Program-made: the position numbers and the translations under genes
Source: an uncultured Bacteroidales bacterium
Lineage (GTDB): Bacteria > Bacteroidota > Bacteroidia > Bacteroidales > WCHB1-69
NCBI GenBank assembly: GCA_900315245.1
Contig: OMYJ01000003.1
Span: forward strand, 32,121-96,120
Length of the DNA stretch: 64,000 nt
Reading direction: 5' to 3'
The notes under the pieces: generated by a model
Told to the model about the DNA's origin: nothing
The model's database searches: none
What the model saw: only the letters and a program-made list of their open reading frames with translations
Part shown: positions 16,295 through 32,667 of the stretch, in pieces
Position numbering within the stretch: the stretch's first letter is position 1
How the letters are laid out: each line of letters begins with the position of its first letter

Positions 16295-16581
16295 TTGGTT
16301 ACTTCGTGTTGGTTACTTCGTGTTGATTACTTTGTGTTGATTACTTCGTGTTGGTTACTTCGTGTTGGTTACTTCGTGTTGATTACTTCGTGTTGGTTAC
16401 TTCGTGTTGGTTACTTCGTGTTGGTTACTTCGTGTTGGTTACTTCGTGTTGGTTACTTCGTGTTGATTACTTCGTGTTGATTACTTCGTGTTTGTGACTT
16501 CGTGTTGATTACTTCGTGTTAGTTATTTCATGTTAGTTATTTCATGTTAGTTATTTCATGTTGATGAGTGAATGTTAACAC
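16295..16581. repeat. Left half of a dyad tandem-repeat array (about 19 units of 14 nt, ending in the GTTAAC centre)
   Basis: (G/A)(G/A)TTACTTCGTGTT units grade into AGTTATTTCATGTT, then gatgagtgaatGTTAACac. It starts 10 nt from the ydeI-like ATG. Confidence 0.95.
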
Positions 16582-16611
16582 CTTATTCATATCGCTTGTT
16601 TTTTGAGTTTG

Positions 16612-16619
16612 CAAAGATA
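16612..16619 (-). promoter_or_regulatory. -7 box (CAAAGATA on the + strand) at the left end of the insertion, reading into the array and the ydeI-like gene
   Basis: gtttgcaaagatag. Transcription from here would cross 16581-16295 before the ATG at 16285. Confidence 0.4.
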
Positions 16620-16788
16620 GTAAAATATCACTCTGCAAAATGCAATCTTTAGTATTTTACCGCCGCAGCGACTTTGCCTTTGAGGAGTTTGCGCAGCTCG
16701 TACTCCAGTTTGGCGGCGGCGAAATCCGAGCGGAAAGCGTGCCTGGTCGCCCTAAAGTAAAAAGAATTAGACTTTAAGACACCATTAG

Positions 16789-16821
16789 TTTAACGTACTC
16801 GAAATATCAGGTCATAAAAAC
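16789..16821 (+). repeat. 33-nt direct repeat tttaacgtactcgaaatatcaggtcataaaaac (copy 1)
   Basis: Identical to 18234-18266. The two copies bracket the small-ORF block. Confidence 0.9.
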
Positions 16822-17033
16822 TGGATGTCGTGTTCCTGGATCCCGCGTATCCTGTTGGCCTTCATGTCCATCTTCAGCCCGCAGGTCTGCGCCCGCTGGA
16901 CGAATCTCACCTCCCCGTTCTTTGTGTAGAAGGATATGGAGAAATAGACCGGCTTCCCGCCAGCCTCTTTGATTTCCATTTCTTTCAGCGCCATCGCGCG
17001 TTTGATTTTCTTCATCTGTGGAATTTTCGGCAA
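16812..17033 (-). CDS. Hypothetical 73-aa protein
   Basis: ORF MPKIPQMKKIKRAMALKEMEIKEAGGKPVYFSISFYTKNGEVRFVQRAQTCGL... I recognise no family, and its stop lies inside the 33-nt repeat. Confidence 0.3.
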   Translation of the reverse strand: MPKIPQMKKIKRAMALKEMEIKEAGGKPVYFSISFYTKNGEVRFVQRAQTCGLKMDMKANRIRGIQEHDIQFL

Positions 17034-17075
17034 AAGTACTTCTGTTCATCCGTTCGGGTTGGGAACAAAAAAAAA

Positions 17076-17096
17076 GGCATCGCCTGTGGCGATGCC
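17076..17096 (-). terminator. Rho-independent terminator after paralogue A
   Basis: Stem GGCATCGCC/GGCGATGCC with a 3-nt loop. On the minus strand it is followed by a 9-nt U tract (a-run 17067-17075). Confidence 0.7.
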
Positions 17097-17118
17097 CTCT
17101 GCTTCAATTCTGTTTTTT

Positions 17119-17502
17119 TCATCCTCCCATGCCTCCGATAATCGGTGCCATCCACGTCATCGGGTTAGGTGCATGTTTTTTCTTTATTTCTTGTATAGCC
17201 TTGTCCCTGCCGTCGAGGAATGCTGTCGTAAAATCCGATTCTGACATTCCATTCAGGACATAAATGCAATCCTCCGTTTCTATTCCTTTTCCGAGAACGT
17301 TTCCGAAGTCGTCCGTCACTTCATTCAGCTCGTTGAAAAAATCCACCGAGCAGTATGTTTCCCACCACGCCATGCTCAAGCATCTTTGATTCATGAATGT
17401 CTTGACTATATCGTATATCGCGCTCTCAAGTTTTATCCTTTGGTCTATGTCCATCGGACCGTCTATGATTTGCTTTTCCATGACACGAGGTTTTTCATCC
17501 AT
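17119..17502 (-). CDS. Small acidic hypothetical protein, paralogue A (likely start at MEKQIIDG)
   Basis: Nearly identical to B over MEKQIIDGPMDIDQRIKLESAIYDIVKT..CLSMAWWETYCSVDFF..GNVLGKGIETEDCIY. It shares the C-terminus NPMTWMAPIIGGMGG with C. Confidence 0.55.
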   Translation of the reverse strand: MDEKPRVMEKQIIDGPMDIDQRIKLESAIYDIVKTFMNQRCLSMAWWETYCSVDFFNELNEVTDDFGNVLGKGIETEDCIYVLNGMSESDFTTAFLDGRDKAIQEIKKKHAPNPMTWMAPIIGGMGG

Positions 17503-17843
17503 GCCAGTGGACTGATTTCATCTTCATTTATCTCCTGTATTGCTTTTTCTTTTCCGTAGTGGAAAGCTGTCGTAAAATCGAATTCTGACTCCCTGTTCAG
17601 GATATATATGCAATCCTCCGTTTCTATTCCTTTTCCGAGAACGTTTCCGGAATCGTCCGACACTTCATTCAGCTCGTCGAAAAAATCCACCGAGCAGTAT
17701 GTTTCCCACCACGCCATGCTCAAGCATCTTTGATCCATGGATGTCTTGACTATATCGTATATCGCGCTCTCAAGTTTTATCCTTTGGTCTATGTCCATCG
17801 GACCGTCTATGATTTGCTTTTCCATGACACGAGGTTTTTTCAT
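17463..17843 (-). CDS. Small acidic hypothetical protein, paralogue B
   Basis: Tandem duplicate of A. Its 3' end overlaps the start of A in another frame. Confidence 0.5.
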   Translation of the reverse strand: MKKPRVMEKQIIDGPMDIDQRIKLESAIYDIVKTSMDQRCLSMAWWETYCSVDFFDELNEVSDDSGNVLGKGIETEDCIYILNRESEFDFTTAFHYGKEKAIQEINEDEISPLAWMKNLVSWKSKS

Positions 17844-17848
17844 AAAAA

Positions 17849-17865
17849 CATCGCCTGTGGCGATG
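17849..17865 (-). terminator. Hairpin/terminator after paralogue C (same module as 17076-17096)
   Basis: catcgcc tgt ggcgatg, followed on the minus strand by uuuuuau. The flanking ~70 nt is repeated at 17097-17160 and 17866-17930. Confidence 0.55.
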
Positions 17866-17889
17866 CCCTTTGCTTCAATTCTGTTTTTT

Positions 17890-18216
17890 TCATCCTCCCA
17901 TGCCTCCGATAATCGGTGCCATCCACGTCATCGGGTTTAGCTTGTGCTCTTCTCGGTATTCGCGACACGCCTCCTCCCTTGCATCTTCGAACGCGTTCCA
18001 GATTTCCTCCATATTTTCTTCGGTTATCCTGTATACGTTTTCCTCCAGTTCGATTATGTCTTTGTCATCGAAATACACGTCAAAGCTGACCATCTCATGC
18101 CAAGTAATGGTTAATCCGCTGTACTCGATAGAATCTTTAATGTTATCGTAGATTTGATTTTTCAAATCCTCTCTTTGTTGTGCGTTTAAATGACCGTCTA
18201 TGATTTGTTTCTCCAT
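17890..18216 (-). CDS. Small acidic hypothetical protein, paralogue C (divergent)
   Basis: MEKQIIDGHLNAQQREDLKNQIYDNIK...ITWHEMVSFDVYFDD... ends in KLNPMTWMAPIIGGMGG. Confidence 0.55.
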   Translation of the reverse strand: MEKQIIDGHLNAQQREDLKNQIYDNIKDSIEYSGLTITWHEMVSFDVYFDDKDIIELEENVYRITEENMEEIWNAFEDAREEACREYREEHKLNPMTWMAPIIGGMGG

Positions 18217-18233
18217 TACACGAGTTTTTTTGT

Positions 18234-18266
18234 TTTAACGTACTCGAAATATCAGGTCATAAAAAC
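18234..18266 (+). repeat. 33-nt direct repeat (copy 2)
   Basis: Identical to 16789-16821. Confidence 0.9.
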
Positions 18267-18395
18267 CTATAGAATGGTACGTTTTGTGAATCATATTATT
18301 ACAACGATTTTTGTCTAAAAAAATTGTGCAACTTCGCATTTTTTGAACTTCTCAATTAACGGCACAAAACTACAAAAAAAGCCGTCACAATCTGC

Positions 18396-18550
18396 AACAG
18401 CTTTCAAAAACTGATCAAACATCCGAAAATGCGATTTTGGGTTATGGTGTCACTTGGTAGTCAAAGTTGGTGGACAGTCCGATGAGGGAGTCCATCACCG
18501 AAGCGATGAAACCGAGCAGTTTGGACTTGAAGCCGGGGCGTTTGTCTGCT
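18396..18550 (-). repeat. Second copy of the IS-end-like repeat, with the ORF tail ..KRPGFKSKLLGFIASVMDSLIGLSTNFDYQVTP*
   Basis: Reverse-complement homology to 3108-3218. Confidence 0.4.
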
Positions 18551-18811
18551 ATATGATGCGGTACTTTTTGCCCTCCTTGTTTATGTCCTATGATTTTTCG
18601 TTATGTTAAAGCGGTTGTCCGAATCTGTTACGGTCGCGAAGGTTGGCGGGCCGTTAGGTCTGCGGGCATAAATCGAATCCCACGCCGTTTTCCATAATCC
18701 CCGCACACCTACGGCGTGCGGAAAAACCAAAACGCCGCCCCCATCCCTACCGAGCCCTTCAGCCCTAACGGGCTGTGTCGTGTATGAATAGTCTTCCGTT
18801 GATACGGTCGC

Positions 18812-19201
18812 GAATGTTAACACGAAGGCTAACCAACAGCGCAGCTAACCAACACGAAGTAATTAACAGCCGCAGGCTCACCAACAGCGAAGCTCACCAA
18901 CAGCCGTAGGCGCATCAACAGCGAAGCTAACCAACAGCCGAAGGCTAACCAACAGCGAAGCTTACCAACACGAAGTAATTAACAGCCGCAGGCTTACCAA
19001 CAGCGAAGCTAACTAACAGCCGAAGGCTAATCAACAGCCGAAGGCTAACCAACAGCGAAGCTAACTAACAGCCGAAGGCTCACCAACAGCCGAAGGCTAA
19101 CCAACAGCGAAGCTAACTAACAGCCGAAGGCTAACCAACAGCGAAGCTAACCAACAGCCGAAGGCTAATCAACAGCCGAAGGCCTGTCAACACGAAGTAA
19201 A
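18812..19201. repeat. Right half of the split dyad array (16/18-nt units)
   Basis: gaatGTTAACacgaaggctaaccaacagc..., then alternating AACAGCCGAAGGCTNANY and AACAGCGAAGCTNANY, ending in caacacgaagtaa. It overlaps the last 12 codons of the CPBP ORF. Confidence 0.95.
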
Positions 19202-19962
19202 CAAACTCCTGCGACGGCTAACACCAAGCTTGCGACGACCACCTTCCAGTCCGGCTGGATGATGACCGGTGTTTTCGCCATCTGCATCTCTCCAAGCCCC
19301 ATCCAGCAGTAAACGGCGAGGAGCGTGGCGGTGAGGTTGCATCCGGCGTGGAGCGCCACGCTATACCAGATGTTTCGCGACCAGATATACACCATCCCGT
19401 AGAACAGGGCGCTGATGAAAGCCCCCGGAAAGTTGCGCACGTGGAGTATTCCGAACAGGAAGGCCATCACCACGCAGACGGCGATCTGTGCGCAGCGACG
19501 GCGGAAAGGGGAGATGGCCATCTGCCTGAAACACAGCTCTTCGAGAACCGGCGCAAGCAGCACGGCGTGTACGCTTGACAAAAGGTCTTCGCGCAGCTCT
19601 GCGGTCGTGTAGGTGAGTGGTTCCATCTTCACTGTATGGACCAAAGACGTGATGCCATAAACGATATACTCTTCCGCCACGAGCCACAGAGGCGCTATCA
19701 GCAACAGTCCTGCGATGATGGGGAATCGCGGCAGCTTCAGCGAAAATTGTCCGGCTTCGGGAAACACTTTCGGTTCGACACGGCACACGAGGAAGATCGT
19801 CAGGGCGATGCCCGCCAAGGTGAGCAGCCACGTCAGCAGTTCGCCCGTGAAACCCGGATTGTCGCCCGCGACCGGCATAGCCGTCACATAGATGATGGCT
19901 GTGCCGTATGCCGCCGCCAGTATCGGCATCAAGGGTCTTAGGAATTGGGTTGCTTTGTTCAT
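19165..19962 (-). CDS. CPBP-family intramembrane glutamic endopeptidase (CAAX protease/Abi)
   Basis: LAPVLEELCFRQ and FGILH motifs in a multi-pass membrane protein. Start chosen at MNKATQFLRPL (the ORF is open up to 20055). The C-terminus LLRVDRPSAVD* is encoded by the repeat array. Confidence 0.7.
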   Translation of the reverse strand: MNKATQFLRPLMPILAAAYGTAIIYVTAMPVAGDNPGFTGELLTWLLTLAGIALTIFLVCRVEPKVFPEAGQFSLKLPRFPIIAGLLLIAPLWLVAEEYIVYGITSLVHTVKMEPLTYTTAELREDLLSSVHAVLLAPVLEELCFRQMAISPFRRRCAQIAVCVVMAFLFGILHVRNFPGAFISALFYGMVYIWSRNIWYSVALHAGCNLTATLLAVYCWMGLGEMQMAKTPVIIQPDWKVVVASLVLAVAGVCLLRVDRPSAVD

Positions 19963-20044
19963 ATCGTTAAAATCAACAGTTTCTTGCTTTGACAATTGTG
20001 TTCGGGCTTCTTGAATATGTGGAACTCTTGATTTGCGCGTGACC

Positions 20045-20851: not shown

Positions 20852-21050
20852 CTGATGCATGGTTTCAAGGAGCATATCCACGCGTTCGATCTCATCTGAC
20901 GGCAATGCGCACTCCAACTCCTCAGGGAAATTGGAGCGTTGCAACGTGGCGGCTGGATCCGTGGCATATACGCCGGCCATTGCCCCGCCGACATACACAA
21001 GCCGCTCGTTAAGGTCTTGCATACCCTCCGCCACCTCTTGCAGACGTTCG

Positions 21051-21657: not shown

Positions 21658-22776
21658 TTACAGATTCTTGCTAAAAAACTCCGCCACCGTGTCCCACGGG
21701 ATGTAGTTGCCCTCGCCGCCGTCGTAGAGGTCGCAGTGGGTGGCGCCGGGGATGATGAGCAGCTGCTTGTTGTCAGGGTTGGGATTCGGCTTGCCGATGA
21801 AGTTGTAACCTTCGGCCTTGCCATCCACCATATAGTGGTAGGCCGCCTCGCCGAAGTAGCGGCTGTGGGCCTTCTCGCCGTGCATCACGAGGACGGCGGA
21901 ACGGATCTCGTTGATGTAGTAGAGGAAGCGGGCGTTGGCGTATGCCTGCGTGCCGATGACGCGCCAGCCATCGTTGCTGTTGCCACTGCGCTTGTGGTAG
22001 CCGCGCGGGGTCTTGTAGTAGGCGTGGTAGTCTTTCACGAACTGCGGAACCTCATCGGGCAGCGGGTCGATGACGCCGCCGGCCATCGCCAGCGGGTCGG
22101 CGAGACGCTGCTTGCCCATTGCCTCACGTGCAGCATGGCGTGACTCCTCTTTGTCGTCGCTGTCGTAGTAGCCGTTGCCGCTGACGCGGGTCATGTCGTA
22201 CATCGTGCTGGCCACGGTGGCCTTGATGCGCGGGTCGGCAGCGGCGGCATTCAGGGCGATGCCACCCCAACCGCAGATGCCGATGATGCCGATGCGCTCA
22301 GGGTCCACATTCTCTAACTGCGACAGGAAATCAACAGCGGCCATAAAGTCCTCCGTGTTGATGTCGGGCGAGGCCGTGCGACGGGGCTCGCCGCTGCTCT
22401 CACCGGTGTACGACGGGTCAAAAGCCAGTGCCACGAAGCCGCGTTCCGCCATCTTCATAGCGTAGAGGCCACTGCTTTGCTCCTTCACGGCGCCGAAAGG
22501 TCCGCTCACAGCGATGGCGGGGAGACCCCTCCCCCCGCCATCCCCAAAGGGGAGGGAGCCTTTTGGCTCATACAAATCTGCGGCCAAGGTCAGGCCGTAC
22601 TGTGTTTCAAACGTCACCTTGCGGTGGTTCACTTTGTCGCTGAGGGGGAACACCTTGTCCCACTCCTGCGTGAGGTTCAATTCCTGTTTCATATTCTCGT
22701 TGTTATTTGTTTCTTGCTTGTTGCCGCAGGCGGCCAGTGACAGTGCCGCGAGGGCGAAGAGGATGAGTTTTTTCAT
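21658..22776 (-). CDS. Alpha/beta hydrolase lipoprotein
   Basis: Lipobox MKKLILFALAALSLAACGN. It has a nucleophile-elbow context IGIIGICGWGG and a C-terminal GATHCDLYD. Confidence 0.8.
   Translation of the reverse strand: MKKLILFALAALSLAACGNKQETNNNENMKQELNLTQEWDKVFPLSDKVNHRKVTFETQYGLTLAADLYEPKGSLPFGDGGGRGLPAIAVSGPFGAVKEQSSGLYAMKMAERGFVALAFDPSYTGESSGEPRRTASPDINTEDFMAAVDFLSQLENVDPERIGIIGICGWGGIALNAAAADPRIKATVASTMYDMTRVSGNGYYDSDDKEESRHAAREAMGKQRLADPLAMAGGVIDPLPDEVPQFVKDYHAYYKTPRGYHKRSGNSNDGWRVIGTQAYANARFLYYINEIRSAVLVMHGEKAHSRYFGEAAYHYMVDGKAEGYNFIGKPNPNPDNKQLLIIPGATHCDLYDGGEGNYIPWDTVAEFFSKNL
22519..22560. repeat. In-frame G/C-rich palindromic element inside the hydrolase CDS (encodes GSLPFGDGGGRGLP)
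   Basis: ggggagacccctccccccgccatccccaaaggggagggagcc. Its reverse complement aligns with the element at 299-338. Confidence 0.6.
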
Positions 22777-22790
22777 ATCGGTTATTATAC

Positions 22791-23225
22791 GTTAGTTATT
22801 TCATGTTGGTTACTTCGTGTTGGTTATTTCATGTTGGTTACTTCGTGTTAGTTATTTCATGTTGGTTATTTCATGTTAACACGAAGTAATTAACAGCCGA
22901 AGGCTTACCAACAGCGAAGCTAATTAACAGCCGAAGGCTTACCAACAGCGAAGCTAATTAACAGCCGAAGGCTTACCAACAGCGAAGCTAATTAACAGCC
23001 GAAGGCTAACTAACAGCGAAGCTCATCAACAGCCGAAGGCTAACTAACAGCGAAGCTAATTAACAGCCGAAGGCTCACCAACAGCGAAGCTAACCAACAG
23101 CCGAAGGCTAATCAACAGCGAAGCTAACTAACAGCCGAAGGCTAACTATCAGCCGAAGGCTTACCAACAGCGAAGCTAATTAACAGCCGAAGGCTTACCA
23201 ACAGCGAAGCTCATCAACACGAAGT
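22791..23225. repeat. Complete dyad tandem-repeat array (centre GTTAAC at 22875-22880)
   Basis: The left arm starts 14 nt from the ATG at 22776. The right arm ends ..gctcatcaacacgaagt and supplies TSC* of the CDS ending at 23214. Confidence 0.95.
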
Positions 23226-23759
23226 GATCTCTCGTATCACTTTCGCCGGACTCCCCGCCACCACCATATTGTCGGGCACGTCCTTGTTGACCACGCTGCC
23301 AGCCGCCACGATAGCGTTCTCGCCGATGGTGACGCCTGCCAGCACTTTCACGTCGGCGCCGAGCCATGCGTTGCGTTTCACCACGATGGGTTTGGTGAGC
23401 AGCGTGTGACGCGCGGCGGGGTCTTCGGGATGGTATTCGGTGGCTAACACGCAATGCGGACCGATGAAGACGTCATCCTCGATGGTGATGCCGCCTATGG
23501 CCAACAGCGTGCAACCGAAGTTGAGGAAGCAGTCGTTGCCGAAGCGCACGCCCGGTCCGTAGTTGATGTTGAGCGGCGTAAACACTCGCACGGTGTCGGG
23601 CACCTCGCTGCGGGTGATCTCGCGCAGATAGTCGCGCACCTCCGCTTCGGTGTGGTAGCCGCTGTTCATCTCGGCGCAGAGCTGCATCGTGCGCTGCACG
23701 TCGGCGTAGAGGTCGTCGCTGCCGACGTAGTCTTTTCCTGTGGGTTTGTCGTTCGTCAT
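23214..23759 (-). CDS. Maltose/galactoside-type sugar O-acetyltransferase (hexapeptide repeat)
   Basis: Start trimmed to MTNDKPTG (ATG 23759). LNINYGPGVRFGNDCFLNFGCTLL..EDPAARHTLLTKPIVVKRNAWLGADVKVLAGVTIGENAIVAAGSVV..VVAGSPAKVIR. Confidence 0.8.
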   Translation of the reverse strand: MTNDKPTGKDYVGSDDLYADVQRTMQLCAEMNSGYHTEAEVRDYLREITRSEVPDTVRVFTPLNINYGPGVRFGNDCFLNFGCTLLAIGGITIEDDVFIGPHCVLATEYHPEDPAARHTLLTKPIVVKRNAWLGADVKVLAGVTIGENAIVAAGSVVNKDVPDNMVVAGSPAKVIREITSC

Positions 23760-23760
23760 T

Positions 23761-24378
23761 TTACCGGATGAAATTCGTGAATACCGCTTCTTCCGCCTCG
23801 GGCAGACCGTTGCGCTCCTTCTCCGCGGCGATGGCCTTGACGAGGAAGGCGATGTTGCGGCCGAGGATGCGCATGCACTGCACGCCCTCCGCATCCTGCA
23901 TGACGTCTTCGGCACAGTGACCGTGTACCATGTTCCAGTAGCGGGTGCTGGCGATGGGCATCTCGCTGATGGTGAAGTACTTGTTCAGCTGGTCGAAAGT
24001 GGCGGTGGTGCCGGCGCGTCGGGCCGAGCAGACCGCGGCGCCCACCTTCATGCACTTCCGGAAGTGCGTGCTGAAGAAGAGGCGGTCGAGGAAGGATTTC
24101 ATCGTGCCGGCAATGCCCGCGTAATAGACCGGCGAGCCGATGACCAGTGCGTCGGCTTGCTCGAATTTCGGGGCGACTTCGTTCACGATGTCATCGAAGA
24201 CGCATTTGCCTGTTTCGTAGCATTTCCCGCAGCTGATGCAGCCGTGGATGTTTTTGTGTCCCACGTGGACGATTTCGGCTTCAACGCCGTTTTTCTGTAA
24301 TTCTTCCGCCACAAGGCTCAGGGCGGTGAAGGTGCAGCCCTTCGCGTTGGGACTGCCATTGATAAGAAGTGCTTTCAT
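23761..24378 (-). CDS. Flavodoxin-family NAD(P)H-dependent oxidoreductase (iron-sulfur flavoprotein type)
   Basis: MKALLINGSPNAKGCT..HGCISCGKCYETGKCVFDD..ALVIGSPVYYAGIAGTMKSFLDR. Confidence 0.8.
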   Translation of the reverse strand: MKALLINGSPNAKGCTFTALSLVAEELQKNGVEAEIVHVGHKNIHGCISCGKCYETGKCVFDDIVNEVAPKFEQADALVIGSPVYYAGIAGTMKSFLDRLFFSTHFRKCMKVGAAVCSARRAGTTATFDQLNKYFTISEMPIASTRYWNMVHGHCAEDVMQDAEGVQCMRILGRNIAFLVKAIAAEKERNGLPEAEEAVFTNFIR

Positions 24379-24385: not shown

Positions 24386-24697
24386 AAGTGAATGTTTATT
24401 ACTTCGTGTTGATTACTTCGTGTTGGTTACTTCGTGTTGGTTATTTCATGTTGATTATTTCATGTTGGTTATTTCATGTTGGTTATTTCATGTTGGTTAT
24501 TTCATGTTAACACGAAGTAATTAACAGCGAAGCTAATTAACAGCCGAAGGCTAATCAACAGCGAAGCTAACTAACAGCCGAAGGCTAATCAACAGCGAAG
24601 CTAACTAACAGCCGAAGGCTAATCAACAGCGAAGCTAACTAACAGCCGAAGGCTAACCAACAGCGAAGCTAACTAACAGCCGAAGGCTAACTAACTA
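24386..24697. repeat. Complete dyad array (centre GTTAAC at 24506-24511)
   Basis: The boundary aagtgaatgtt lies 8 nt from the ATG at 24378. The right arm runs into the TAG stop (24695-24697) of the next gene. Confidence 0.95.
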
Positions 24698-25825
24698 TTT
24701 TAGTGTTCCATATTGTTCGTCGCTGACGGGCTCCAGCCATTCGTTGCTGGCCCCTTCCTGCACGTCCTTATGGTAGGTGAGGTGCTGCATCCAGCTGTCT
24801 TTGGCGGCGCCGTGCCAGTGCTTCACACCCTCGGGAATCTCAATGATTACGCCAGGCTCCAACTTGACAGCGGGCTTGCCCCATTCCTGGTACCAACCAC
24901 GGCCATAGACGCACACCAACACCTGCACCTGCTTGTGGTGGATGTGCCAGTTGTTGCGGCATCCCGGCTCGAAGGTCACGTTGACCATGCCGCCATCGTA
25001 GGGCGCAAGGTAGCTGTTGCCGATGAAGTACTGTGCGTAGGCGGTGTTCGGCTCGCCTCTGCGCCAGTTCGACTTCAAGTCAACGTAGTTCTGGACGTAT
25101 ATATCGCTGGCGAGGTGGTCGTTGGCAGAATCGCTGATGCCCAACTGCTGAATGGCCACGGCGACACGGTGCGCTTCCATTTTGCCCACACGCTCCTGCA
25201 ACACCTTCGGGATGGCGAGCAGCTGGGCGTCGGTCAGACCCATGTTCCGTGCGCCGCGCACGTGGGCGGCCAGCTGGGGTTCCACGCCCTCCAGACCAGC
25301 CAAAGCACTGACGGTCACCAACTCGCGGTCGGCGTGGGTGAGCAGGTCGCGGGCGAAGATGTCGCCGAAGAGGTGCGCCTTGAGGTAGTAGTCCTCGGCG
25401 GGACAGAACTTGTAGTCGAAGGGTTGCCCCGACAGTTTGGTCTGCACTTCGGTGCCTTGTTTCAGGGCGTCGTAGCTGCCGGGAATCGGAGAGGACTCCT
25501 CCCCTGTCGTCACCTCACCGCGCTGTTCCATCACCTTCTGCAGGGTGCCTAATGCGTTGAGCGAGCGCGGAAATCCCGTGTAGGCGTAGAGTTGCGAGAG
25601 GGCCTCCTTGATCTGGTTGGCGGTAAGCCCCGCGTCGAAGCCCTCATGGATGGCGGTGGCTAACGACGTTTGGTCGCCCTGCGCCTCGTAGCAGGCGATG
25701 GCCGTCATCGCCGCCGCCTGCTTCTCGTTGAATGTCAAAGTGTTCATATCTTTGTCTGTTTTTGTTGTCTTGTTGCAGCCGGCCATCAACACGATGGCGG
25801 CGAAAATCAGAAGGGTGTGTTTCAT
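24695..25825 (-). CDS. Carboxymuconolactone decarboxylase (AhpD-like) family protein fused to a cupin domain; lipoprotein
   Basis: Lipobox LIFAAIVLMAGCN. Two CMD-like segments are followed by NNWHIHHKQVQVLVCVYGRGWYQEWG..IPEGVKHWHGA. Confidence 0.7.
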   Translation of the reverse strand: MKHTLLIFAAIVLMAGCNKTTKTDKDMNTLTFNEKQAAAMTAIACYEAQGDQTSLATAIHEGFDAGLTANQIKEALSQLYAYTGFPRSLNALGTLQKVMEQRGEVTTGEESSPIPGSYDALKQGTEVQTKLSGQPFDYKFCPAEDYYLKAHLFGDIFARDLLTHADRELVTVSALAGLEGVEPQLAAHVRGARNMGLTDAQLLAIPKVLQERVGKMEAHRVAVAIQQLGISDSANDHLASDIYVQNYVDLKSNWRRGEPNTAYAQYFIGNSYLAPYDGGMVNVTFEPGCRNNWHIHHKQVQVLVCVYGRGWYQEWGKPAVKLEPGVIIEIPEGVKHWHGAAKDSWMQHLTYHKDVQEGASNEWLEPVSDEQYGTLK

Positions 25826-25843
25826 AATATTTTGAATTGTTTG

Positions 25844-27381: not shown

Positions 27382-28485
27382 ATGAAGAAATCATTGTTTG
27401 TGGCTGTGCTGTTAATGCTTGCCGGAATGACACTGAATGCTCAGGAGAACAACTACGCGAAGAGCGATTTTGTTCCCGGCGACGAAATCATATTCGACGA
27501 CAACTTTGAACACGAGAAACTTGGGGAATTCCCGCTGCGATGGGACTTGCTGGATGGCTATGCGGAGACCGCGCAGCAGAAGGGTCGCAATGTTCTGGCG
27601 TTCACCGACAACGGTCTGGGACAGGTGATGCCGCTGATGAAAGAGAAATGGGATTGGCTACCTGAGGTGTTCACGGTGGAGTTCGACCTCTACGTGGCCC
27701 CGATGAATTCGGCAGACGAGGAGGAGACATCGCTCGATATGAGCATTTATTTCGGCGACCGCGGTGACGAAAGCTACTACAACGCCTCGAGTTATGTGCG
27801 TTTCTGGTACAGGGAAGACGGGTCGTGCAACTTGACGTGGTCTCTGCTGAAACCGGACGGGAGTAGCCAGTCGAGTGGAGAAAAGATGTTGGGGCTGACC
27901 CCGGGCACCAGCGACTACTTAGAGAAGGACAATCCGGTGGTTGCCGGCGAGTGGAACCACTTCGCCTTTTCGTTCAACAAGCGGGCTTTCAAGGGCTATG
28001 TGAATGGCGTGCGCATGATCAACGTGCCGGCGATGAAGGCGCCGGGCTACCTCTTCTTCGCCAGCGGAGCGTACTATCGCTACACGGGGTTGAGCAACGT
28101 GCGCATCGCCCAGGGCGCCGTGCCGCTCTACGACCGTTTGACCACCGACGGCAAGATTGTGACCTACGCCATCACCTTCGAGAGCGGCAAGGCCGACCTC
28201 AAACCGGAATCCACCATTGAAATCAATCGCGTGGCCAAGCTGATGCAAGAGCACACCGACCTCATCTTCGAGGTGCAGGGTCACTGCGACAACACCGGAA
28301 CCGACGCCATAAACGATCCGCTGAGCCAGAAGCGTGCAGAAGCCATCGTGGATGCCCTGGTGAAACTGGGTATCGACAAATCACGTCTCTCGGCCGTGGG
28401 CAAAGGATCACACTCCCCCATCGCCCCCAACACCACAGAGGAAGGCCGTGCCAAGAACCGCCGTGTGGAATTTGTAAAGAAATAA
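27382..28485 (+). CDS. OmpA-family protein
   Basis: Signal peptide MKKSLFVAVLLMLAGMTLNAQ and a C-terminal OmpA domain FESGKADLKPES...GHCDNTGTDAINDPLSQKRAEAIVDALV..GRAKNRRVEF. Confidence 0.8.
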   Translation: MKKSLFVAVLLMLAGMTLNAQENNYAKSDFVPGDEIIFDDNFEHEKLGEFPLRWDLLDGYAETAQQKGRNVLAFTDNGLGQVMPLMKEKWDWLPEVFTVEFDLYVAPMNSADEEETSLDMSIYFGDRGDESYYNASSYVRFWYREDGSCNLTWSLLKPDGSSQSSGEKMLGLTPGTSDYLEKDNPVVAGEWNHFAFSFNKRAFKGYVNGVRMINVPAMKAPGYLFFASGAYYRYTGLSNVRIAQGAVPLYDRLTTDGKIVTYAITFESGKADLKPESTIEINRVAKLMQEHTDLIFEVQGHCDNTGTDAINDPLSQKRAEAIVDALVKLGIDKSRLSAVGKGSHSPIAPNTTEEGRAKNRRVEFVKK

Positions 28486-28490
28486 GAGAA

Positions 28491-29117
28491 TGATTTGGTT
28501 ACTTCGTGTTGGTTACTTCGTGTTGGTTACTTCGTGTTGATTATTTCATGTTGATTATTTCATGTTAACACGAAGTAATTAACAGCCGCAGGCTAACTAA
28601 CAGCGTAGCTAATCAACAGCCGAAGGCTAACTAACAGCCGAAGGCTAACCAACAGCGAAGCTAACCAACAGCCGAAGGCTAACTAACAGCCGAAGGCTAA
28701 CCAACAGCCGAAGGCTAACTAACAGCCGAAGGCTAACCAACAGCCGAAGGCTAACCAACAGCCGAAGGCTAACCAACAGCCGAAGGCTAACCAACAGCGA
28801 AGCTAACCAACAGTCGAAGGCTAATCAACAGCGAAGCTAACCAACAGCCGAAGGCTAACTAACAGCCGAAGGCTAACTAACAGCCGAAGGCTAACTAACA
28901 GCCGAAGGCTAACCAACAGCGAAGCTAACTAACAGCCGAAGGCTAACCAACAGCGAAGCTAACCAACAGCCGAAGGCTAACTAACAGCCGAAGGCTAACC
29001 AACAGCGAAGCTAACCAACAGCGAAGCTAATCAACAGCCGAAGGCTAACTAACAGCGAAGCTAACCAACAGCCGAAGGCTAACTAACAGCCGAAGGCTAA
29101 CCAACAGTCGAAGGCTA
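28491..29117. repeat. Complete dyad array (centre GTTAAC at 28564-28569; right arm about 550 bp) between convergent genes
   Basis: It begins 6 nt after the TAA of 27382..28485. The last unit ..cgaaggcta provides the TAG stop (29115-29117) of the GNAT gene. Confidence 0.95.
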
Positions 29118-30275
29118 TTTCAGCTCCAACCTCAGCACCCTGATAGGTCTGTCTTTTCCTTGATACTGGGTCTCGTCGATGCAGGTTTCTCCGGTGGGTT
29201 GGAATCCACACTTCTCCATCACACGGCCGGAGGCGGGATTGTCAACGAAATGCCCGCTGATGAGCGATTGGATGTCCGTCGTTCGGCGGATATAGTCTAA
29301 CATCGTTTGCAGCGCTTCCGTGCAGATGCCTCGGTTCCAGTACGGTTTGGCCACCCAATAGCCGCAGAGGGGCTCCCCCTCGCGGGCGGGGAGATTGCAC
29401 TCGCACGAAGGACCGTAGCCGATGGCCCCGATGGCTTCTCCCGTCGCGTTGAGTTCGATGGCCCAGTTGGAGTCGTTGTGGAATACCGTGCGGATGATCT
29501 CTAAGCTTTCCTCTCTGCTGTTGTGCGGTGGCCAGCCCGCCCGAGGTCCCACGTCCGGGTCGGAGGCGTATTTGAACAAGGAGTCGGCGTCGCTCTCAAA
29601 CCAGGGACGAAGTGTCAGCCTCTCGGTCCGCAGCATCAGTTTGGCCTTTTCGGCGAAAGGCGGCAACTGCCCATCGTTATAGGCTTTCGCCTTTCTGGGG
29701 AAACCTTTGTCGTACGCTTCGAACGCTTCGGGGTTCTCATCAGCCACGAAATAGCCCTTCGGCGGACAATAGGTGCCCTCGCGGTTGCCCCAATAGCCAG
29801 GAATCAGCTCCTGGGCGAGGAAGAAAGGTACTTCCTCCTGCGGCATATCATGGTAATGGATGCGGAGCTTGCTGGCCAGACCGAAGCCCGCGTGTTTGTA
29901 AAACTCGATATTGCCCTCCATCTGAAGCATGCCGACCCCCATCTCACGCGCCTTCTCCAATGCATAGCGAAGGAGTTTCAGCCCGTAGCCTTTGCGCTTG
30001 TAGTCGGGGTGAATGCTGATGGGGCCGAAGGTCCATGAAGGGAAGGCTGTCCCATCGTCAAGGAGGATTTCGGCTTTCGAGAACATCACGTGACCGATCA
30101 GCTTGCCGTCTTCTTCCATCACGAAGTCCAGTTCGGGGATGAAATCGGGATTGTTTCTGTATTGATTGAGCACATAATGCTCCGTGCATCCGGGACGATA
30201 GACGTTCCAGAACGCATTGCGGGTGAGGTCCTCCACCTCGCGATAATCTTCGGGTTGCTCAAGTCGGATAGTCAT
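29115..30275 (-). CDS. Tandem GNAT-family N-acetyltransferase
   Basis: Two acetyltransferase halves: ..HPDYKRKGYGLKLLRYALEKA.. and ..VAKPYWNRGICTEALQTMLDY.. Confidence 0.8.
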   Translation of the reverse strand: MTIRLEQPEDYREVEDLTRNAFWNVYRPGCTEHYVLNQYRNNPDFIPELDFVMEEDGKLIGHVMFSKAEILLDDGTAFPSWTFGPISIHPDYKRKGYGLKLLRYALEKAREMGVGMLQMEGNIEFYKHAGFGLASKLRIHYHDMPQEEVPFFLAQELIPGYWGNREGTYCPPKGYFVADENPEAFEAYDKGFPRKAKAYNDGQLPPFAEKAKLMLRTERLTLRPWFESDADSLFKYASDPDVGPRAGWPPHNSREESLEIIRTVFHNDSNWAIELNATGEAIGAIGYGPSCECNLPAREGEPLCGYWVAKPYWNRGICTEALQTMLDYIRRTTDIQSLISGHFVDNPASGRVMEKCGFQPTGETCIDETQYQGKDRPIRVLRLELK

Positions 30276-30316
30276 AGTCTATTTTATGTCTATTTTATCG
30301 GATGAAATTCGTTTAA

Positions 30317-30535
30317 GTGAATGTTGGTTACTTCGTGTTAGTTACTTCGTGTTAGTTACTTCGTGTTAGTTATTTCATGTTGGTGACTTCGTGTTGGTGA
30401 GTGAATGTTAACACGAAGTCATTAACAGCGAAGCTAACTAACAGCGAAGCTAATCAACAGCCGAAGGCTAACTAACAGCGAAGCTAATCAACAGCCGAAG
30501 GCTAACTAACAGCCGAAGGCTCATCAACACGAAGT
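30317..30535. repeat. Complete dyad array (centre GTTAAC at 30407-30412)
   Basis: The boundary gtgaatgtt is at 30317. The right end ..ggctcatcaacacgaagt supplies TSC* of the ClbS-like CDS. Confidence 0.95.
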
Positions 30536-31054
30536 CTTCAGCTTCTTTTGGTGCGTCTTCAACATCTTCAACGCCTGCTTGTAGGGACTCGTGGTGACAC
30601 TCGTGAAGTAAGCCGCCATATCGGTGGTGTAGGTGCACTTGTAGTGGCCTTTGGTGAAAAGTTCCTCCTCGGAGAAGCTGCCCGCCAGCTGAATCATTTC
30701 GTCATGGGTCTGCTCCAGAAGCCGCTGCGCCTCTTTGAACGAGGTGCTCTGGTGTTTTTCCACCAACATCTTGTCCATTTCGTGGTAGTTTTTGCGGTAT
30801 TCGTCGGGCAGATAGTCCTTTTGACGGCCTTCGCGGATGTTGTTCACAAATTCGCTCATCAGCACTTGCCATTCATAAAGGTGTATGAGGAGGTCGCGGG
30901 CGCATTGGTCGTAAATCCACCGTGCACCGCATTTTTTGGGGTCATTGGCGAACTGGAAGGTCGCGTTCAGTTCGTCATCTGTCATTTTGCCGATTTGCTC
31001 GTTCAGTTTCGCATAACTGTCCGACATGGCTGCTAAGAGTTCGTTTTTGTCCAT
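30524..31054 (-). CDS. ClbS/DfsB-family four-helix-bundle protein (DUF1706)
   Basis: Start trimmed to MDKNELL, because the -7 box at 31097 overlaps the longer ORF. ..CARDLLIHLYEWQVLMSEFV.. Confidence 0.65.
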   Translation of the reverse strand: MDKNELLAAMSDSYAKLNEQIGKMTDDELNATFQFANDPKKCGARWIYDQCARDLLIHLYEWQVLMSEFVNNIREGRQKDYLPDEYRKNYHEMDKMLVEKHQSTSFKEAQRLLEQTHDEMIQLAGSFSEEELFTKGHYKCTYTTDMAAYFTSVTTSPYKQALKMLKTHQKKLKTSC

Positions 31055-31096
31055 TGTCGTTTTGGCTTTCACATTTGTTTTATTCAAAAAACCTTG

Positions 31097-31104
31097 CAAA
31101 GATA
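31097..31104 (-). promoter_or_regulatory. -7 box (CAAAGATA on the + strand) for the ClbS-like gene
   Basis: ccttgcaaagatac, 43 nt upstream of the ATG at 31054. Confidence 0.5.
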
Positions 31105-31132
31105 CAACTTTTCTTAATTGAAGCTGAAAGCT

Positions 31133-31277
31133 GGTTACTTCGTGTTGATTACTTCGTGTTGATTATTTCATGTTAACACGAAGTCATTAACAGCCGAAGG
31201 CTAACCAACAGCGAAGCTAACCAACAGCGAAGCTAATCAACAGCCGTAGGCTAATCAACAGCGAAGCTAACCGACAG
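31133..31277. repeat. Short complete dyad array (centre GTTAAC at 31172-31177) between divergent promoters
   Basis: ggttacttcgtgtt gattacttcgtgtt gattatttcatGTTAACacgaagtcatt aacagccgaaggct... Confidence 0.95.
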
Positions 31278-31324
31278 CCATATTCTTTTGCAAAATATTT
31301 TTTTGCCATGTAAGAAAATAGTCG

Positions 31325-31332
31325 TATTTTTG
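31325..31332 (+). promoter_or_regulatory. -7 box TATTTTTG for the ferritin gene
   Basis: gtcgtatttttgcaacc, 65 nt upstream of the ATG at 31397. Confidence 0.5.
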
Positions 31333-31396
31333 CAACCGAAAAGCAGGAACGTCATTAATCCGTCTTTTCGACAACAATCTATAAATAACAATAATT

Positions 31397-31912
31397 ATGC
31401 TTAACAAAAAAGTAGCCGATCTGCTTAACGATCAAATCAACAAGGAGCTTTACAGCGCCTATCTCTATCTTGATATGTCCAACTATTTCGAGCGCCGCGG
31501 TCTGAACGGCTTCGCCAACTGGTATATGATTCAGGCCCAGGAGGAGCGCGACCACGCTATGCTGTTCTACCGCTACATGCAGAACAACGACTGCCCCGTG
31601 ACGCTGGATGCTATCGCCAAGCCCGACAAGGTGTTCAAGAAAGATATGGACGTGCTGAAGGCCGGTCTGGAGCACGAGGAATATGTAACCGCCTCGATCC
31701 ACACTATCTATGACGCCGCGAACAAGGTCAAGGATTTCCGTACTATGCAGTTCCTCGACTGGTTCGTCAAAGAGCAAGGCGAAGAGGAAACCAACGCCCG
31801 CGATATGATCTCGAAGATGGAACTCTTCGGCAGCGACCCCCGCAGCCTCTATATGCTCAACCAGGAGCTCGCCGCCCGCGCCTACAGCGCCCCCAGTCTG
31901 GTACTCGATTAA
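31397..31912 (+). CDS. ftnA: Non-haem ferritin
   Basis: LNDQINKELYSAYLYLDMSNYF..GFANWYMIQAQEERDHAMLFYRYM..LEHEEYVTASI.. Confidence 0.9.
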   Translation: MLNKKVADLLNDQINKELYSAYLYLDMSNYFERRGLNGFANWYMIQAQEERDHAMLFYRYMQNNDCPVTLDAIAKPDKVFKKDMDVLKAGLEHEEYVTASIHTIYDAANKVKDFRTMQFLDWFVKEQGEEETNARDMISKMELFGSDPRSLYMLNQELAARAYSAPSLVLD

Positions 31913-31963
31913 GACAAAGAATACTTCAAAAACACTACTTTTCTTGAAAGAAACAGAAAGGCT

Positions 31964-32667
31964 GATCACTTCGTGTTGATGACTTCGTGTTGATGACTTC
32001 GTGTTGATGACTTCGTGTTGATGACTTCGTGTTAATTATTTCATGTTAATTATTTCATGTTAACACAAAGTAATTAACAGCCGAAGGCTAACCAACAGCG
32101 AAGCTAATCAACAGCCGAAGGCTAACCAACAGCCGAAGGCTAACCAACAGCGAAGCTAATCAACAGCCGAAGGCTAACCAACAGCGAAGCTAACCAACAG
32201 CCGAAGGCTAACCAACAGCGAAGCTCATCAACAGTCGAAGGCTAACCAACAGCGAAGCTCATCAACAGCCGAAGGCTAACCAACAGCGAAGCTAATCAAC
32301 AGTCGAAGGCTAACCAACAGCGAAGCTCATCAACAGCCGAAGGCTAACCAACAGCGAAGCTCATCAACAGCCGAAGGCTAACCAACAGCGAAGCTCATCA
32401 ACAGCCGAAGGCTAACCAACAGCGAAGCTAATCAACAGCCGAAGGCTAACCAACAGCGAAGCTAACCAACAGCGAAGCTAATCAACAGCCGAAGGCTAAC
32501 CAACAGCGAAGCTAACCAACAGCGAAGCTAACCAACAGCGAAGCTAACCAACAGCAAAGCTAATCAACAGCCGAAGGCTAACCAACAGCGAAGCTAATCA
32601 ACAGCCGAAGGCTAACCAACAGCGAAGCTAATCAACAGCCGAAGGCTAACCAACAGCCGCAGGCTCA
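31964..32667. repeat. Largest complete dyad array (centre GTTAAC at 32059-32064; right arm about 600 bp) between convergent genes
   Basis: The left arm uses GATGACTTCGTGTT then AATTATTTCATGTT units. The right arm ends ..cagccgcaggctca, containing the TGA stop (32665-32667) of the reductase gene. Confidence 0.95.

Follow-up and report, generated by a model that had tools for sequence, protein, structure and literature searches.

REP units of Proteobacteria, found in BIMEs and in REPINs with RAYT, are extragenic, hairpin-forming imperfect palindromes of 20-40 nt that carry a GTAG or CGTC tag and alternate in inverted orientation; they gather in composite clusters between genes, often right after stop codons and within operons, vary in copy number and are lineage-bound (PMC3116915, PMC3337134, PMC3733652). 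BrickBuilt, a MITE of Porphyromonas gingivalis, is a species-limited, always intergenic, spacer-less tandem minisatellite between short inverted ends; it is present in ~19 copies per genome, each built from a varying number of one 23-nt unit with a distinct leader and tail, situated 49-591 nt from coding sequences and carrying promoter elements (PMC4596501). Integron attC sites with their cassettes and the dif (pdif) modules of Acinetobacter are dyads between unrelated, mostly co-oriented small genes, whose ORF ends overlap the element and whose order is shuffled among relatives (PMC7399989, PMC13141974). Heptamer repeats (the cyanobacterial STRR, and TAACTGA of Beggiatoaceae, Cyanobacteria and Bacteroidetes) fill intergenic gaps with short direct repeats, forward a few nt before start codons and occasionally reversed after stop codons; contigs break in them, and they have been suggested to act in translation or in gene rearrangement (PMC4679880). 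CRISPR arrays are tandem, short, partially palindromic repeats in non-coding DNA. The d(GCGNAGC) mini-hairpin is known in nature as single hairpins at phage origins or promoters (PMC13037366, PMC3201870); GCGAAGC is the classic hyperstable DNA mini-hairpin, and GNA loops alone give such a structure in experiments (PMC13037366).

We analyzed a window of 64,000 nucleotides (the whole stretch of DNA studied) from an uncultured Bacteroidales bacterium. A preliminary description had reported, between 16295 and 32667, eight non-coding blocks of one shared grammar: inverted 14-mers, a GTT-AAC junction, one forward 14-mer and then a run of 16- and 18-mers. Tandem Repeats Finder recovered all eight at the coordinates claimed, with periods of 14, 16/18 and 34 and scores of up to 942, and a unit-by-unit parse reproduced the grammar. 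The arrays were confirmed to be non-coding and to share one orientation whatever the gene strand, and GTTAAC, which had been placed at the dyad center, marks an array center at eight of its nine occurrences in the window. The claim that the window holds no copies elsewhere also stood: in a scan with four unit cores, one mismatch tolerated, 171 of 174 matches fell inside the blocks and the other three were isolated singles. The blocks total 3,119 bp, or 19% of the span (about 3.1 kb and a fifth had been estimated). Other points required revision. The boundary word GTGAATGTT is present in some arrays but not in all; most non-trivial gaps are occupied, but this amounts to 7 of ~13 gene junctions of the span and not to nearly every one; the 2 or 4 extra bases ascribed to right-arm units are 1 or 2 base pairs added to a central mini-palindrome; and the first two blocks, one holding only a left arm and the other only a right arm, are halves of one array. 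The 'd' units adjoin the center, and the inversion point is always single.

Nearest in kind to these arrays are REP/BIME clusters and minisatellite-bearing MITEs. Unlike REP/BIME, the arrays consist of 14-18 nt units with perfect palindromes of 7-11 nt and no GTAG or CGTC tag, set strictly head-to-tail with one inversion point and a graded series of stem lengths; the window yielded no RAYT gene. BrickBuilt belongs to the same order, Bacteroidales. In contrast to its single unit, four unit types here share one hairpin module in a dyad layout, and the arrays abut or overlap ORF ends. Heptamer repeats differ in their 7-nt, non-palindromic units and in having no dyad of differing unit lengths. Plain heptamer arrays are present elsewhere in the window. 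CRISPR, which the preliminary description had set aside, is distinguished by spacers and cas genes, neither of which accompanies the arrays, and by the mixed unit lengths and inversion point found here. Rfam gave no family match, no plasmid or phage matches to the family were found, and the unit sequences were not found among 8.3 million papers; the view that this is no described class holds within the reach of these tools, and the family looks undescribed. The reported lack of a transposase extends to integrases and recombinases among the Pfam-scanned window ORFs (most ORFs of at least 120 aa), and gene calls for the 10 kb left of the window contained no recombinase or transposase.

All arrays lie on the plus strand. 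Array 1 (16295-16581), the left half of the split array, was resolved by Tandem Repeats Finder and the unit parse into 16 inverted 14-mers of the GGTTACTTCGTGTT type, 3 'd' variants (AGTTATTTCATGTT) and one boundary unit, with the center GTTAAC at 16574-16579. Its minus strand would provide gene 15713-16285 with a 5' leader, and this leader has 19 units here against 3 in L051, where the gene is 97% identical. Array 2 (18812-19201), the right half, has 22 units of 14, 16 and 18 nt, and the CAAX protease ORF 19165-19962 reaches 34 nt into it. The array is cut at its dyad center by a 2.2-kb insert outside the repeat family (16582-18811, minus strand), flanked by a 12-bp direct repeat, GAATGTTAACAC, whose first copy lies at 16570-16581 (plus strand) and whose second opens array 2 at 18812. 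The insert comprises three paralogous small ORFs, a 33-nt perfect direct repeat (16789-16821 and 18234-18266) and, at its left end, a -7 promoter box on the minus strand (16612-16619); it was found in every relative, and the array without it was not seen among them.

The remaining arrays are complete dyads. Three are intra-operon: array 3 (22791-23225; dadadd left of the junction, then A, a C/B run of 19 units and A) between the hydrolase 21658-22776 and the hexapeptide acetyltransferase 23214-23915, array 4 (24386-24697; aaaddddd, then A and BC x5) between the FMN reductase 23761-24378 and the CMD-cupin gene 24695-25825, and array 6 (30317-30535; aaada plus a boundary unit, then ABBCBCCA) between GNAT and DUF1706 (30524-31054), whose C-terminal -TSC is encoded by the terminal unit of the array. 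Array 5 (28491-29117; 5 left and 32 right units) separates two convergent genes, OmpA on the plus strand (27382-28485) and GNAT on the minus strand (29115-30275). Array 7 (31133-31277; aad, then ACBBCB), the shortest dyad, lies between divergent promoters, that of DUF1706 with a -7 box at 31097-31104 on the minus strand and that of ferritin with one at 31325-31332 on the plus strand. Array 8 (31964-32667; 7 left and 36 right units), the longest, lies between two convergent genes, ferritin on the plus strand (31397-31912) and aldo/keto reductase on the minus strand (32665-33630), and its last unit supplies the reductase stop codon. Apart from one match put down to chance, the arrays contain no -7 box, unlike BrickBuilt with its promoter elements. 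The settings therefore comprise operons, convergent genes, divergent genes (upstream of their promoters) and one 5' leader, and the flanking genes are both accessory and housekeeping (sufD-rlmH, hypA/hypB, rex); no one functional context is common to them. The arrays run up to or over stop codons and take the place of native spacers: at array-free orthologous junctions the native C-terminus is longer and the spacer measures 5-12 nt, whereas proteins at array-bearing junctions end in -TSC*, -LRC* or -PSAVD* (* is the stop), encoded by repeat units. Such junctions appear insertion-like.

We found that a single module, AAC-stem-GNA-stem'-NAYY, underlies all units, with a perfect stem of 2, 3 or 4 bp: AT/AT or AC/GT in the 14-mers, AGC/GCT in the 16-mer and AGCC/GGCT in the 18-mer. 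The 16-mer holds GCGAAGC exactly, and the 18-mer holds CCGAAGG. In a census of 662 units from 22 MAGs and the window, stem and flank positions were at least 97% invariant, loop bases 1 (G) and 3 (A) were fixed, and the only variable core position was the middle loop base (A > C > T, never G); this confinement of natural variation to the N of G-N-A agrees with the published mini-hairpin rule (PMC13037366). Also invariant are the AAC linker and the second tail base, the A of NAYY. The loop-closing pair is C-G in all but the 'd' units; relative to the 14-mer these show a compensatory change, in which C-G has become T-A at both positions together (86 double against at most 7 single changes in the census). 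Each unit can form a GNA-triloop mini-hairpin on single-stranded DNA, and we infer that it does so in the cell. Nearest-neighbor folding assigns the units little stability (0 to -2.4 kcal/mol), so the basis of the hairpin argument is the published experiments and not this computation. The perfect mini-palindromes could stem from selection for the hairpin or from quasipalindrome correction via template switching. To our knowledge, no long tandem chromosomal arrays of the mini-hairpin motif have been described.

The family is present in 58 metagenome contigs and in 22 MAGs of rumen Bacteroidales, and is confined to a narrow clade with 89-96% identity between flanking genes. Five arrays have base-for-base copies in independent assemblies of other samples: array 1 in L047, L048, L049 and L052, array 2 in L047, L048 and L059, array 4 in L059, L060 and L062, array 6 in L059 and L060, and array 7 in L042, L059 and L060. 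Other arrays vary between strains by whole 14-nt or 34-nt units; in contigs with an identical flanking protein, they differ by one 'bc' pair more or less or by 'A' units. Arrays are oriented alike in 46 of 50 multi-array loci, and co-orientation regardless of gene strand calls for a directional cause. The 3' end of a 321-aa reductase keeps its array in all 11 loci, and such retention at particular gene ends across all relatives could reflect selection.

Our preferred reading, held tentatively and at somewhat less than even probability, is that of a BIME- or MITE-like intergenic minisatellite which is specific to the clade, non-autonomous and prone to form structure, and whose growth by slippage is driven by hairpins. 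In this reading the element is non-coding and dyad-shaped, with mini-hairpins as repeat units. A basic element of a few inverted 14-mers, the GTT-AAC junction and units A-C-B-A would have landed at gene boundaries, where it overwrote the final few codons and the original spacer; this replacement is seen at the junctions, and recombination is the presumed route. No candidate recombinase that could place the element at new junctions was found among the scanned window ORFs or in the 10 kb to the left. The arms would then lengthen or shorten in steps of whole units (14 nt, or 16+18 = 34 nt) through slippage or unequal exchange; length polymorphism is observed, and the hairpins may be its driver. 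Intra-operon arrays would ride on the mRNA as long structured spacers, since promoters are lacking there. With its single inversion point, 'd' units at the center, lone forward 14-mer before the 16/18 run and invariant linker bases, the array grammar exceeds in order what free slippage predicts, which counts against this reading; so do the shared orientation of the arrays, their retention at particular gene ends and the little stability computed for the units.

Selected RNA-level operon punctuation is an unlikely alternative. On this account, the transcribed run of 16/18-nt hairpins beside the upstream stop protects or processes the upstream mRNA, as with REP/BIME or phage T7 RNase III sites, and the A/C-rich, weakly structured 14-mers before the next start provide a leader or ribosome standby site in a phylum without Shine-Dalgarno pairing. 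In about three quarters of the arrays the arm rich in hairpins indeed adjoins the upstream stop (gap -34 to +9 nt), while the 14-mer arm precedes the downstream start by 0-60 nt, and in both orientation classes the mRNA-sense order is stop, ACUUCGUGUU, ... AACACGAAGUAA, start. This order, however, follows from the dyad grammar on either strand and is not independent evidence, and the remaining quarter of the arrays is inverted relative to genes. The 21-54 nt ahead of the genes that follow arrays 3, 4 and 6 contain no -7 box, so those arrays must be transcribed through, but array 7 lies upstream of both adjoining promoters and is thus absent from either mRNA. Folded as RNA, a whole array gives a long, imperfect hairpin of -92 and -103 kcal/mol, with z-scores of -5.0 and -6.9, yet the conserved G-N-A loop is a DNA mini-hairpin signature, and the long arm in most mRNAs would show UNC loops. 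Bacteroidetes heptamer repeats, just upstream of starts and reversed after stops, offer a precedent (PMC4679880). Against this account, the leader ranges from 3 to 19 units among near-identical genes. The RNA-level role suggested in the preliminary description is weakened, as a single role, by the mixed settings (operons, convergent genes, divergent promoters, a 5' leader).

It is improbable that the arrays are recombination sites of gene-module exchange, analogous to integron attC or Acinetobacter dif modules and acting either through a site-specific enzyme at the palindromic center TGTTAACA or through homologous recombination between co-oriented arrays. Co-oriented arrays do separate unrelated, mostly co-oriented small enzyme genes, ORF ends overlap them as with attC, ~25 shared gene families differ in order among relatives, and in L004 and L016 the same module of array plus promoter stands before different genes. 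Against this, array junctions are no more variable than others (same-neighbor fraction 0.48 with arrays and 0.34 without), and this absence of enrichment at synteny breakpoints, together with the housekeeping genes that arrays also separate, weakens the recombination sites proposed earlier. The arrays further differ from attC and pdif in their tandem internal repeats, in the promoters that some modules carry and in having no adjoining integrase; nor did the scanned window ORFs or the 10-kb-left gene calls include an integrase or transposase. The units misfit the attC boxes RYYYAAC and GTTRRRY and form no single imperfect palindrome of 57-141 bp. The variable 2.2-kb insert sits exactly at the dyad center with the 12-bp direct repeat on both sides, but its occurrence in every relative leaves no before-and-after pair.

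Arrays of two arms of direct repeats around a center are seen in some plasmid centromeres and operator arrays, and the layout here resembles them. Binding-site arrays for a DNA- or RNA-binding protein (a regulator, nucleoid or partition-like protein) reading the AAC...A linker or the small palindrome would also fit the invariance of AAC and of the second tail base A, which the hairpin does not need, and a related CACGAAT / ATTCGTG dyad occurs at 35917-36004, in the reductase-AraC divergent promoter region. We regard this as very improbable, since stem length shifts by 1 or 2 bp between unit types and changes half-site spacing, unlike a dimeric site, copy number is free to vary between strains, and no associated gene was found for the eight arrays within 16 kb or the dozens of loci. 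Collapsed or chimeric assembly is ruled out for practical purposes: many short-read contigs stop within arrays and the three longest have no exact copy elsewhere, but five arrays are identical across different samples and assemblers, the grammar recurs throughout the 22 MAGs and 58 contigs, and the window and L059 agree in the unit string of a 616-bp array.

For the clade-specific minisatellite, we regard effects on expression and genome plasticity as by-products and not as a selected function. They probably take the form of hairpins located at or across stop codons, of long leaders at the 5' side and of homology that is portable from one locus to another.

All eight blocks of dyad-symmetric tandem repeats that the preliminary description had placed between genes over 16295-32667 were recovered by Tandem Repeats Finder (arrays 1 to 8: 16295-16581, 18812-19201, 22791-23225, 24386-24697, 28491-29117, 30317-30535, 31133-31277 and 31964-32667), the periods being 14, 16/18 and 34 nt and the highest score 942. 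Splitting the blocks into units reproduced the grammar first reported: a left arm of inverted 14-mers, NNTNACTTCGTGTT passing into NNTTATTTCATGTT nearer the centre, is followed by a single GTTAAC, one forward 14-mer (AACACGAAGTNATT), a right arm made of a run of 18-mers (AACAGCCGAAGGCTNANY) and 16-mers (AACAGCGAAGCTNANY) and, in many but not all arrays, a terminal AACACGAAGT. The arrays are 145-704 bp long and consist of contiguous, head-to-tail units with one inversion point per array, and the common orientation ascribed to them was borne out in 8/8 blocks. A scan of the window with four unit cores, one mismatch being tolerated, gave 174 matches, 171 of which were within the eight blocks and 3 of which were isolated singles outside; GTTAAC occurs at 9 sites in the window, and 8 of these are array centres.

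The four unit types are forms of one module, AAC + stem + G-N-A + complementary stem + a four-base tail NAYY, in which the stem is AT/AT in the centre-proximal 14-mer variant ('d' units), AC/GT in 14-mers, AGC/GCT in 16-mers and AGCC/GGCT in 18-mers. The "two or four extra bases" originally noted in the right-arm units are thus one or two added base pairs of a perfect mini-palindrome, which spans 7-11 nt around GNA in every unit. In a census that pooled the window with 22 MAGs (662 units), positions in the stems and flanks were at least 97% invariant, loop bases 1 (G) and 3 (A) were essentially fixed, and the middle loop base was the sole variable core position (A > C > T, G never). The 'd' units differ from 14-mers by a coupled C-G to T-A change, with 86 double changes vs at most 7 single changes in the census, the 86 not being independent events because units multiply by duplication. 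The 16-mers have a C-G closed G-N-A triloop on a G-C stem, with loop variation confined to N; 160 of the 177 have A at this base and therefore, barring rare changes at other positions, match GCGAAGC, a DNA mini-hairpin with a melting temperature of 76 degrees, which in experiments formed only with G-N-A loops, TTC-loop hairpins being without its nuclease resistance (PMC13037366). Nearest-neighbour folding of single units, by a model that misses mini-hairpin stability, gave 0 to -2.4 kcal/mol, the same for both strands; the units may form hairpins on single-stranded DNA in the cell. A whole array is predicted to fold as a long imperfect hairpin, its left arm pairing with its right arm, at -46 to -49 kcal/mol as DNA and -92 to -103 kcal/mol as RNA (z-scores -3.8 to -6.9).

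Exact full-length copies of arrays 1, 2, 4, 6 and 7 were found in independent assemblies from other samples, and the other arrays differed by +/-1 16+18 pair or by the number of left-arm 14-mers in contigs that carry an identical CMD-cupin, reductase or DUF8412 protein. Ahead of gene 15713-16285, the leader array counts 19 units in the window vs 3 in a relative's locus, L051, the two genes being 97% identical. These exact copies and whole-unit differences show the arrays to be genuine and to act as variable-number tandem repeats, gaining or losing whole units. Many short-read contigs terminate within arrays.

One pattern scan of species-representative genomes yielded 37 loci, spread over 22 MAGs of rumen origin (cattle, sheep, goat, yak and buffalo); all of these are Bacteroidales (one labelled Paludibacteraceae) save for one contig binned in a Fibrobacter succinogenes MAG. 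This contig (L031, CACXIR010000073.1) bears a typical array, and the most likely cause is mis-binning of a Bacteroidales contig, not inter-phylum transfer. A dyad-centre scan identified 58 metagenome contigs with the centre, and the window itself matches rumen metagenome scaffolds; no match to the arrays was found in viral contigs, plasmids or phages, the plasmid matches being to the hydrolase gene only. The grammar is conserved across all loci, and the clade is narrow, given that the flanking genes show median nucleotide identities of 89-96% between loci. Array orientation is uniform in 46 of 50 multi-array loci, and the right arm exceeds the left in 136/166 arrays (medians 6 vs 2 units). To weigh a replication-strand account of the co-orientation and the longer right arm, GC skew and GC3 skew were computed, and in these short loci both track gene strand rather than give replication direction.

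Pfam scans indicated that the genes between arrays encode unrelated small enzymes and other proteins, namely a CAAX protease, metallophosphoesterase, alpha/beta hydrolase, hexapeptide acetyltransferase, FMN reductase, CMD-cupin, amidohydrolase, OmpA, GNAT, DUF1706 protein, ferritin and aldo/keto reductases. The rest of the window is ordinary Bacteroidota chromosome (CTP synthase, a T9SS-tailed C10 peptidase, methylmalonyl-CoA mutase), with a restriction-modification cluster left of the arrays. Integrase and transposase domains were absent from the window ORFs scanned and from gene calls for 10 kb left of the window, as was any tRNA or tmRNA in the window that could serve as an integration site. 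The arrays occupy entire intergenic gaps: the right-arm end lies at or within the neighbouring gene's stop codon (gap -34 to +9 nt) and the left-arm end 0-60 nt ahead of a start codon, with the right arm at the stop and the left arm at the start in about three quarters and the opposite in one quarter. In many cases, protein C-termini are encoded by repeat units, and a universal reading frame at these ORF-array fusions was ruled out, four families ending in -TSC* and others in -LRC*, -PSAVD* or -VVGAL*. Judged by the positions of -7 boxes, three arrays (3, 4 and 6) are intra-operonic and one (array 1) is in a leader; the two longest, 5 and 8, separate convergent genes, and array 7 has a divergent promoter on either side and lies upstream of both. 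Arrays of relatives are located between sufD and rlmH, beside hypA and hypB, and after rex, and an array is kept at the 3' end of a 321-aa reductase gene in 11/11 loci. An 11-nt direct repeat (GTCTATTTTAT x2, 30277-30298) separates array 6 from the start codon of the GNAT gene.

Orthologous junctions with and without an array were compared. The acetyltransferase-hydrolase junction is array-free in two loci, L012 and L006, where a spacer of 5-10 nt follows an upstream protein with the C-terminus REIRKELKQ* or REIKQ*; where an array is present, this C-terminus is REI-TSC*. Likewise, the flavodoxin-reductase junction is empty in L023 and holds an array plus a promoter segment in L004, and this same array-plus-promoter segment precedes a different gene in L016. 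These junctions indicate that the element arrives by replacing the native spacer and the last codons, and no target-site duplication was detected between occupied and array-free orthologues.

Blocks 1 and 2 are one split array: block 1 is a left arm only, block 2 is a right arm only, and the 2.2-kb segment that separates them has a 12-bp direct repeat, GAATGTTAACAC, at both flanks. The split recurs in every relative examined, its junctions conserved and its insert 1.3-2.1 kb long. A Bacteroidetes -7 box, TATCTTTG, lies on the minus strand at the insert's left end (16612-16619), so array 1 would be the 5' leader of gene 15713-16285. Just downstream of this predicted promoter starts a 17-codon upstream ORF (MNKVLTFTHQHEITNMK*; 16537-16590, minus strand), which crosses the dyad centre into array 1 and which keeps its ATG and first codons in each relative examined. 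Three paralogous small ORFs in the insert (17119-17502, 17463-17843 and 17890-18216, all minus strand, no Pfam hit) are bracketed by a perfect 33-nt direct repeat (TTTAACGTACTCGAAATATCAGGTCATAAAAAC; 16789-16821 and 18234-18266), and their copy number differs among relatives; the insert (16582-18811) resembles an independent, small and variable gene array, which may consist of immunity-type genes. Downstream of gene 15713-16285 is a 33-codon remnant of a PhzF-family gene (about 15545-15700, minus strand); an intact PhzF gene at that place in the relatives' loci L015, L022 and L051 indicates a deletion or replacement in the window strain. The plus-strand ORF 14421-15656 (411 aa, no Pfam hit), the longest in this region and considered as an integrase candidate, is an antisense artefact; the true genes, for a metallo-beta-lactamase-rubredoxin protein (14601-15299) and a 78-aa ORF (15306-15542), are on the minus strand.

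Plain short tandem repeats are also present in other intergenic gaps of the window (54789-54849, 56073-56127, 57085-57142 and 52530-52554); such repeats include (TTCACGA)n between two divergent -7 boxes, GAATGAT-type heptamers between DUF819 and TonB, ATCATCC(Y) octamers overlapping the stop of gene 57128-58600, and (ATTATCA)x3.6 at the mutase gene stop. These plain heptamers are similar to the main family's boundary unit, AACATTCACT, and this genome may generally tend to carry short tandem repeats at the ends of its genes. A small dyad at 35917-36004, with CACGAAT words on its left and ATTCGTG, ATTCACG and ATTCATG words on its right, sits where the promoters of an aldo/keto reductase operon and of an AraC-family regulator diverge; it has the CACGAA core in common with the 14-mer unit, and may represent operator sites or a relative of the repeat family.

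Among described repeats, the closest in kind are BIME/REP clusters (PMC3116915, PMC3733652) and a MITE that bears a minisatellite, BrickBuilt of Porphyromonas gingivalis (PMC4596501). The arrays also show parallels to the intergenic heptamer repeats of Bacteroidetes (PMC4679880), but they lack the defining features of each of these families. Like REP, BIME and REPIN sequences, they are extragenic, every array being intergenic, and have palindromic, stem-loop-capable units. However, REP units are 20-40 nt long with a terminal GTAG or CGTC and form doublets that alternate in orientation, whereas array units are 14, 16 and 18 nt long, have the consensus AAC...NAYY without either motif, and run head-to-tail around one inversion point; no RAYT (Y1 HUH transposase) gene was found in the window ORFs scanned. 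In many arrays, the outermost left 14-mer and the terminal CAACACGAAGT unit make a pair of inverted copies, in the manner of MITE terminal inverted repeats, but arrays have neither target-site duplications nor clean empty sites. As the preliminary description maintained, they are not CRISPR: the units are contiguous without unique spacers, and Pfam scans of window ORFs gave no cas domains. Rfam returned 0 matches at the gathering threshold over the whole window, and an E-value search of 16-33 kb gave just two sub-threshold matches, a microRNA model and Acido-1 (35.5 bits vs a cutoff of 50, within a coding gene), both judged to be chance. Literature searches with six unit strings and with keywords on rumen Bacteroidales repeats gave nothing relevant.

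The best-supported reading, which we hold tentatively, is that the arrays are a lineage-specific, non-autonomous, structure-prone intergenic minisatellite. Such an element would be seeded at gene boundaries via recombination, and its arrays would expand and contract via hairpin-assisted slippage. An appreciable probability is nevertheless left for a selected RNA or recombination function by four features: one inversion point per array, 'd' units next to the centre, linker bases that do not vary, and co-orientation.

That the arrays are integron-like recombination sites would accord with the approximately 25 gene families that occur in many different orders among relatives. However, the fraction of same neighbours was 0.48 at array junctions vs 0.34 at array-free ones (crude gene calls), array junctions being no more variable than the others, and arrays as synteny breakpoints or cassette boundaries are thus unsupported. 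Integrons are expected to have an IntI tyrosine recombinase and attI beside the array, whereas Phage_integrase had 0 matches in the window ORFs scanned and in gene calls for 10 kb left of the window. Moreover, attC is a single imperfect palindrome of 57-141 bp, R''(RYYYAAC) ... R'(GTTRRRY), whereas the elements here are tandem arrays of 145-704 bp, in which GTTGGTT, GTTGATT and GTTAGTT have just two purines after GTT and do not fit GTTRRRY. The neighbour fractions, the attachment to particular gene ends such as that of the reductase, the housekeeping contexts and the lack of a recombinase in these scans all lowered our estimate of an integron-like role. It is quite unlikely, in our judgment, that the arrays are attachment sites of an unrecognised Bacteroidota gene-module exchange system, a functional analogue of integrons or dif modules with a quite different site architecture. 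In such a system, strings of GNA mini-hairpins would extrude from single-stranded DNA, crossover would take place at the palindromic centre, TGTTAACA, and a putative recombinase or HUH enzyme would recognise the sites, so that modules with or without a promoter could be inserted, excised or swapped.

A single RNA role is hard to reconcile with the varied contexts and with the quarter of arrays that are inverted relative to genes, and the conserved G-N-A rule suits DNA better, UNC loops being what most of the mRNAs would carry. We dropped the idea that the GTTAAC centre is connected with the nearby restriction-modification genes because GTTAAC is not avoided outside arrays (observed/expected 0.83 in 790 kb of clade loci). 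Those genes belong to a defence-type cluster (1315-14069) with a Schlafen/AlbA_2 protein, three N6/N4 DNA methyltransferases, an MjaI-like endonuclease and a weak HincII-like hit; in the same 790 kb, a roughly 10-fold depletion of GTCGAC and CATATG suggests that restriction systems recognise these two sites. Perfect 12-nt tandem repeats (TTGGTGACATTA x4.8) at 1511-1568, with others at 1225-1251 and 1575-1602, lie by coordinates within the Schlafen/AlbA_2 gene (1315-2904) in the case of 1511-1568, and would there encode a four-residue protein repeat.

If confirmed, the arrays would be a previously uncatalogued type of bacterial intergenic repeat, with a GNA mini-hairpin unit in a graded series of 2-, 3- and 4-bp stems. 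The GNA mini-hairpin is known from phage origins and nucleic-acid engineering, and we know of no earlier case in which this hyperstable structure is the unit of long chromosomal arrays. The arrays break short-read assemblies of abundant uncultured rumen Bacteroidales and hence affect MAG quality, and for strain tracking they provide natural markers of variable number. By putting up to 700 nt of structured sequence between co-transcribed genes, they make translation initiation and operon architecture, both poorly understood in this phylum, open to test. A new gene-exchange route in gut Bacteroidota would come to light if the arrays did serve recombination.
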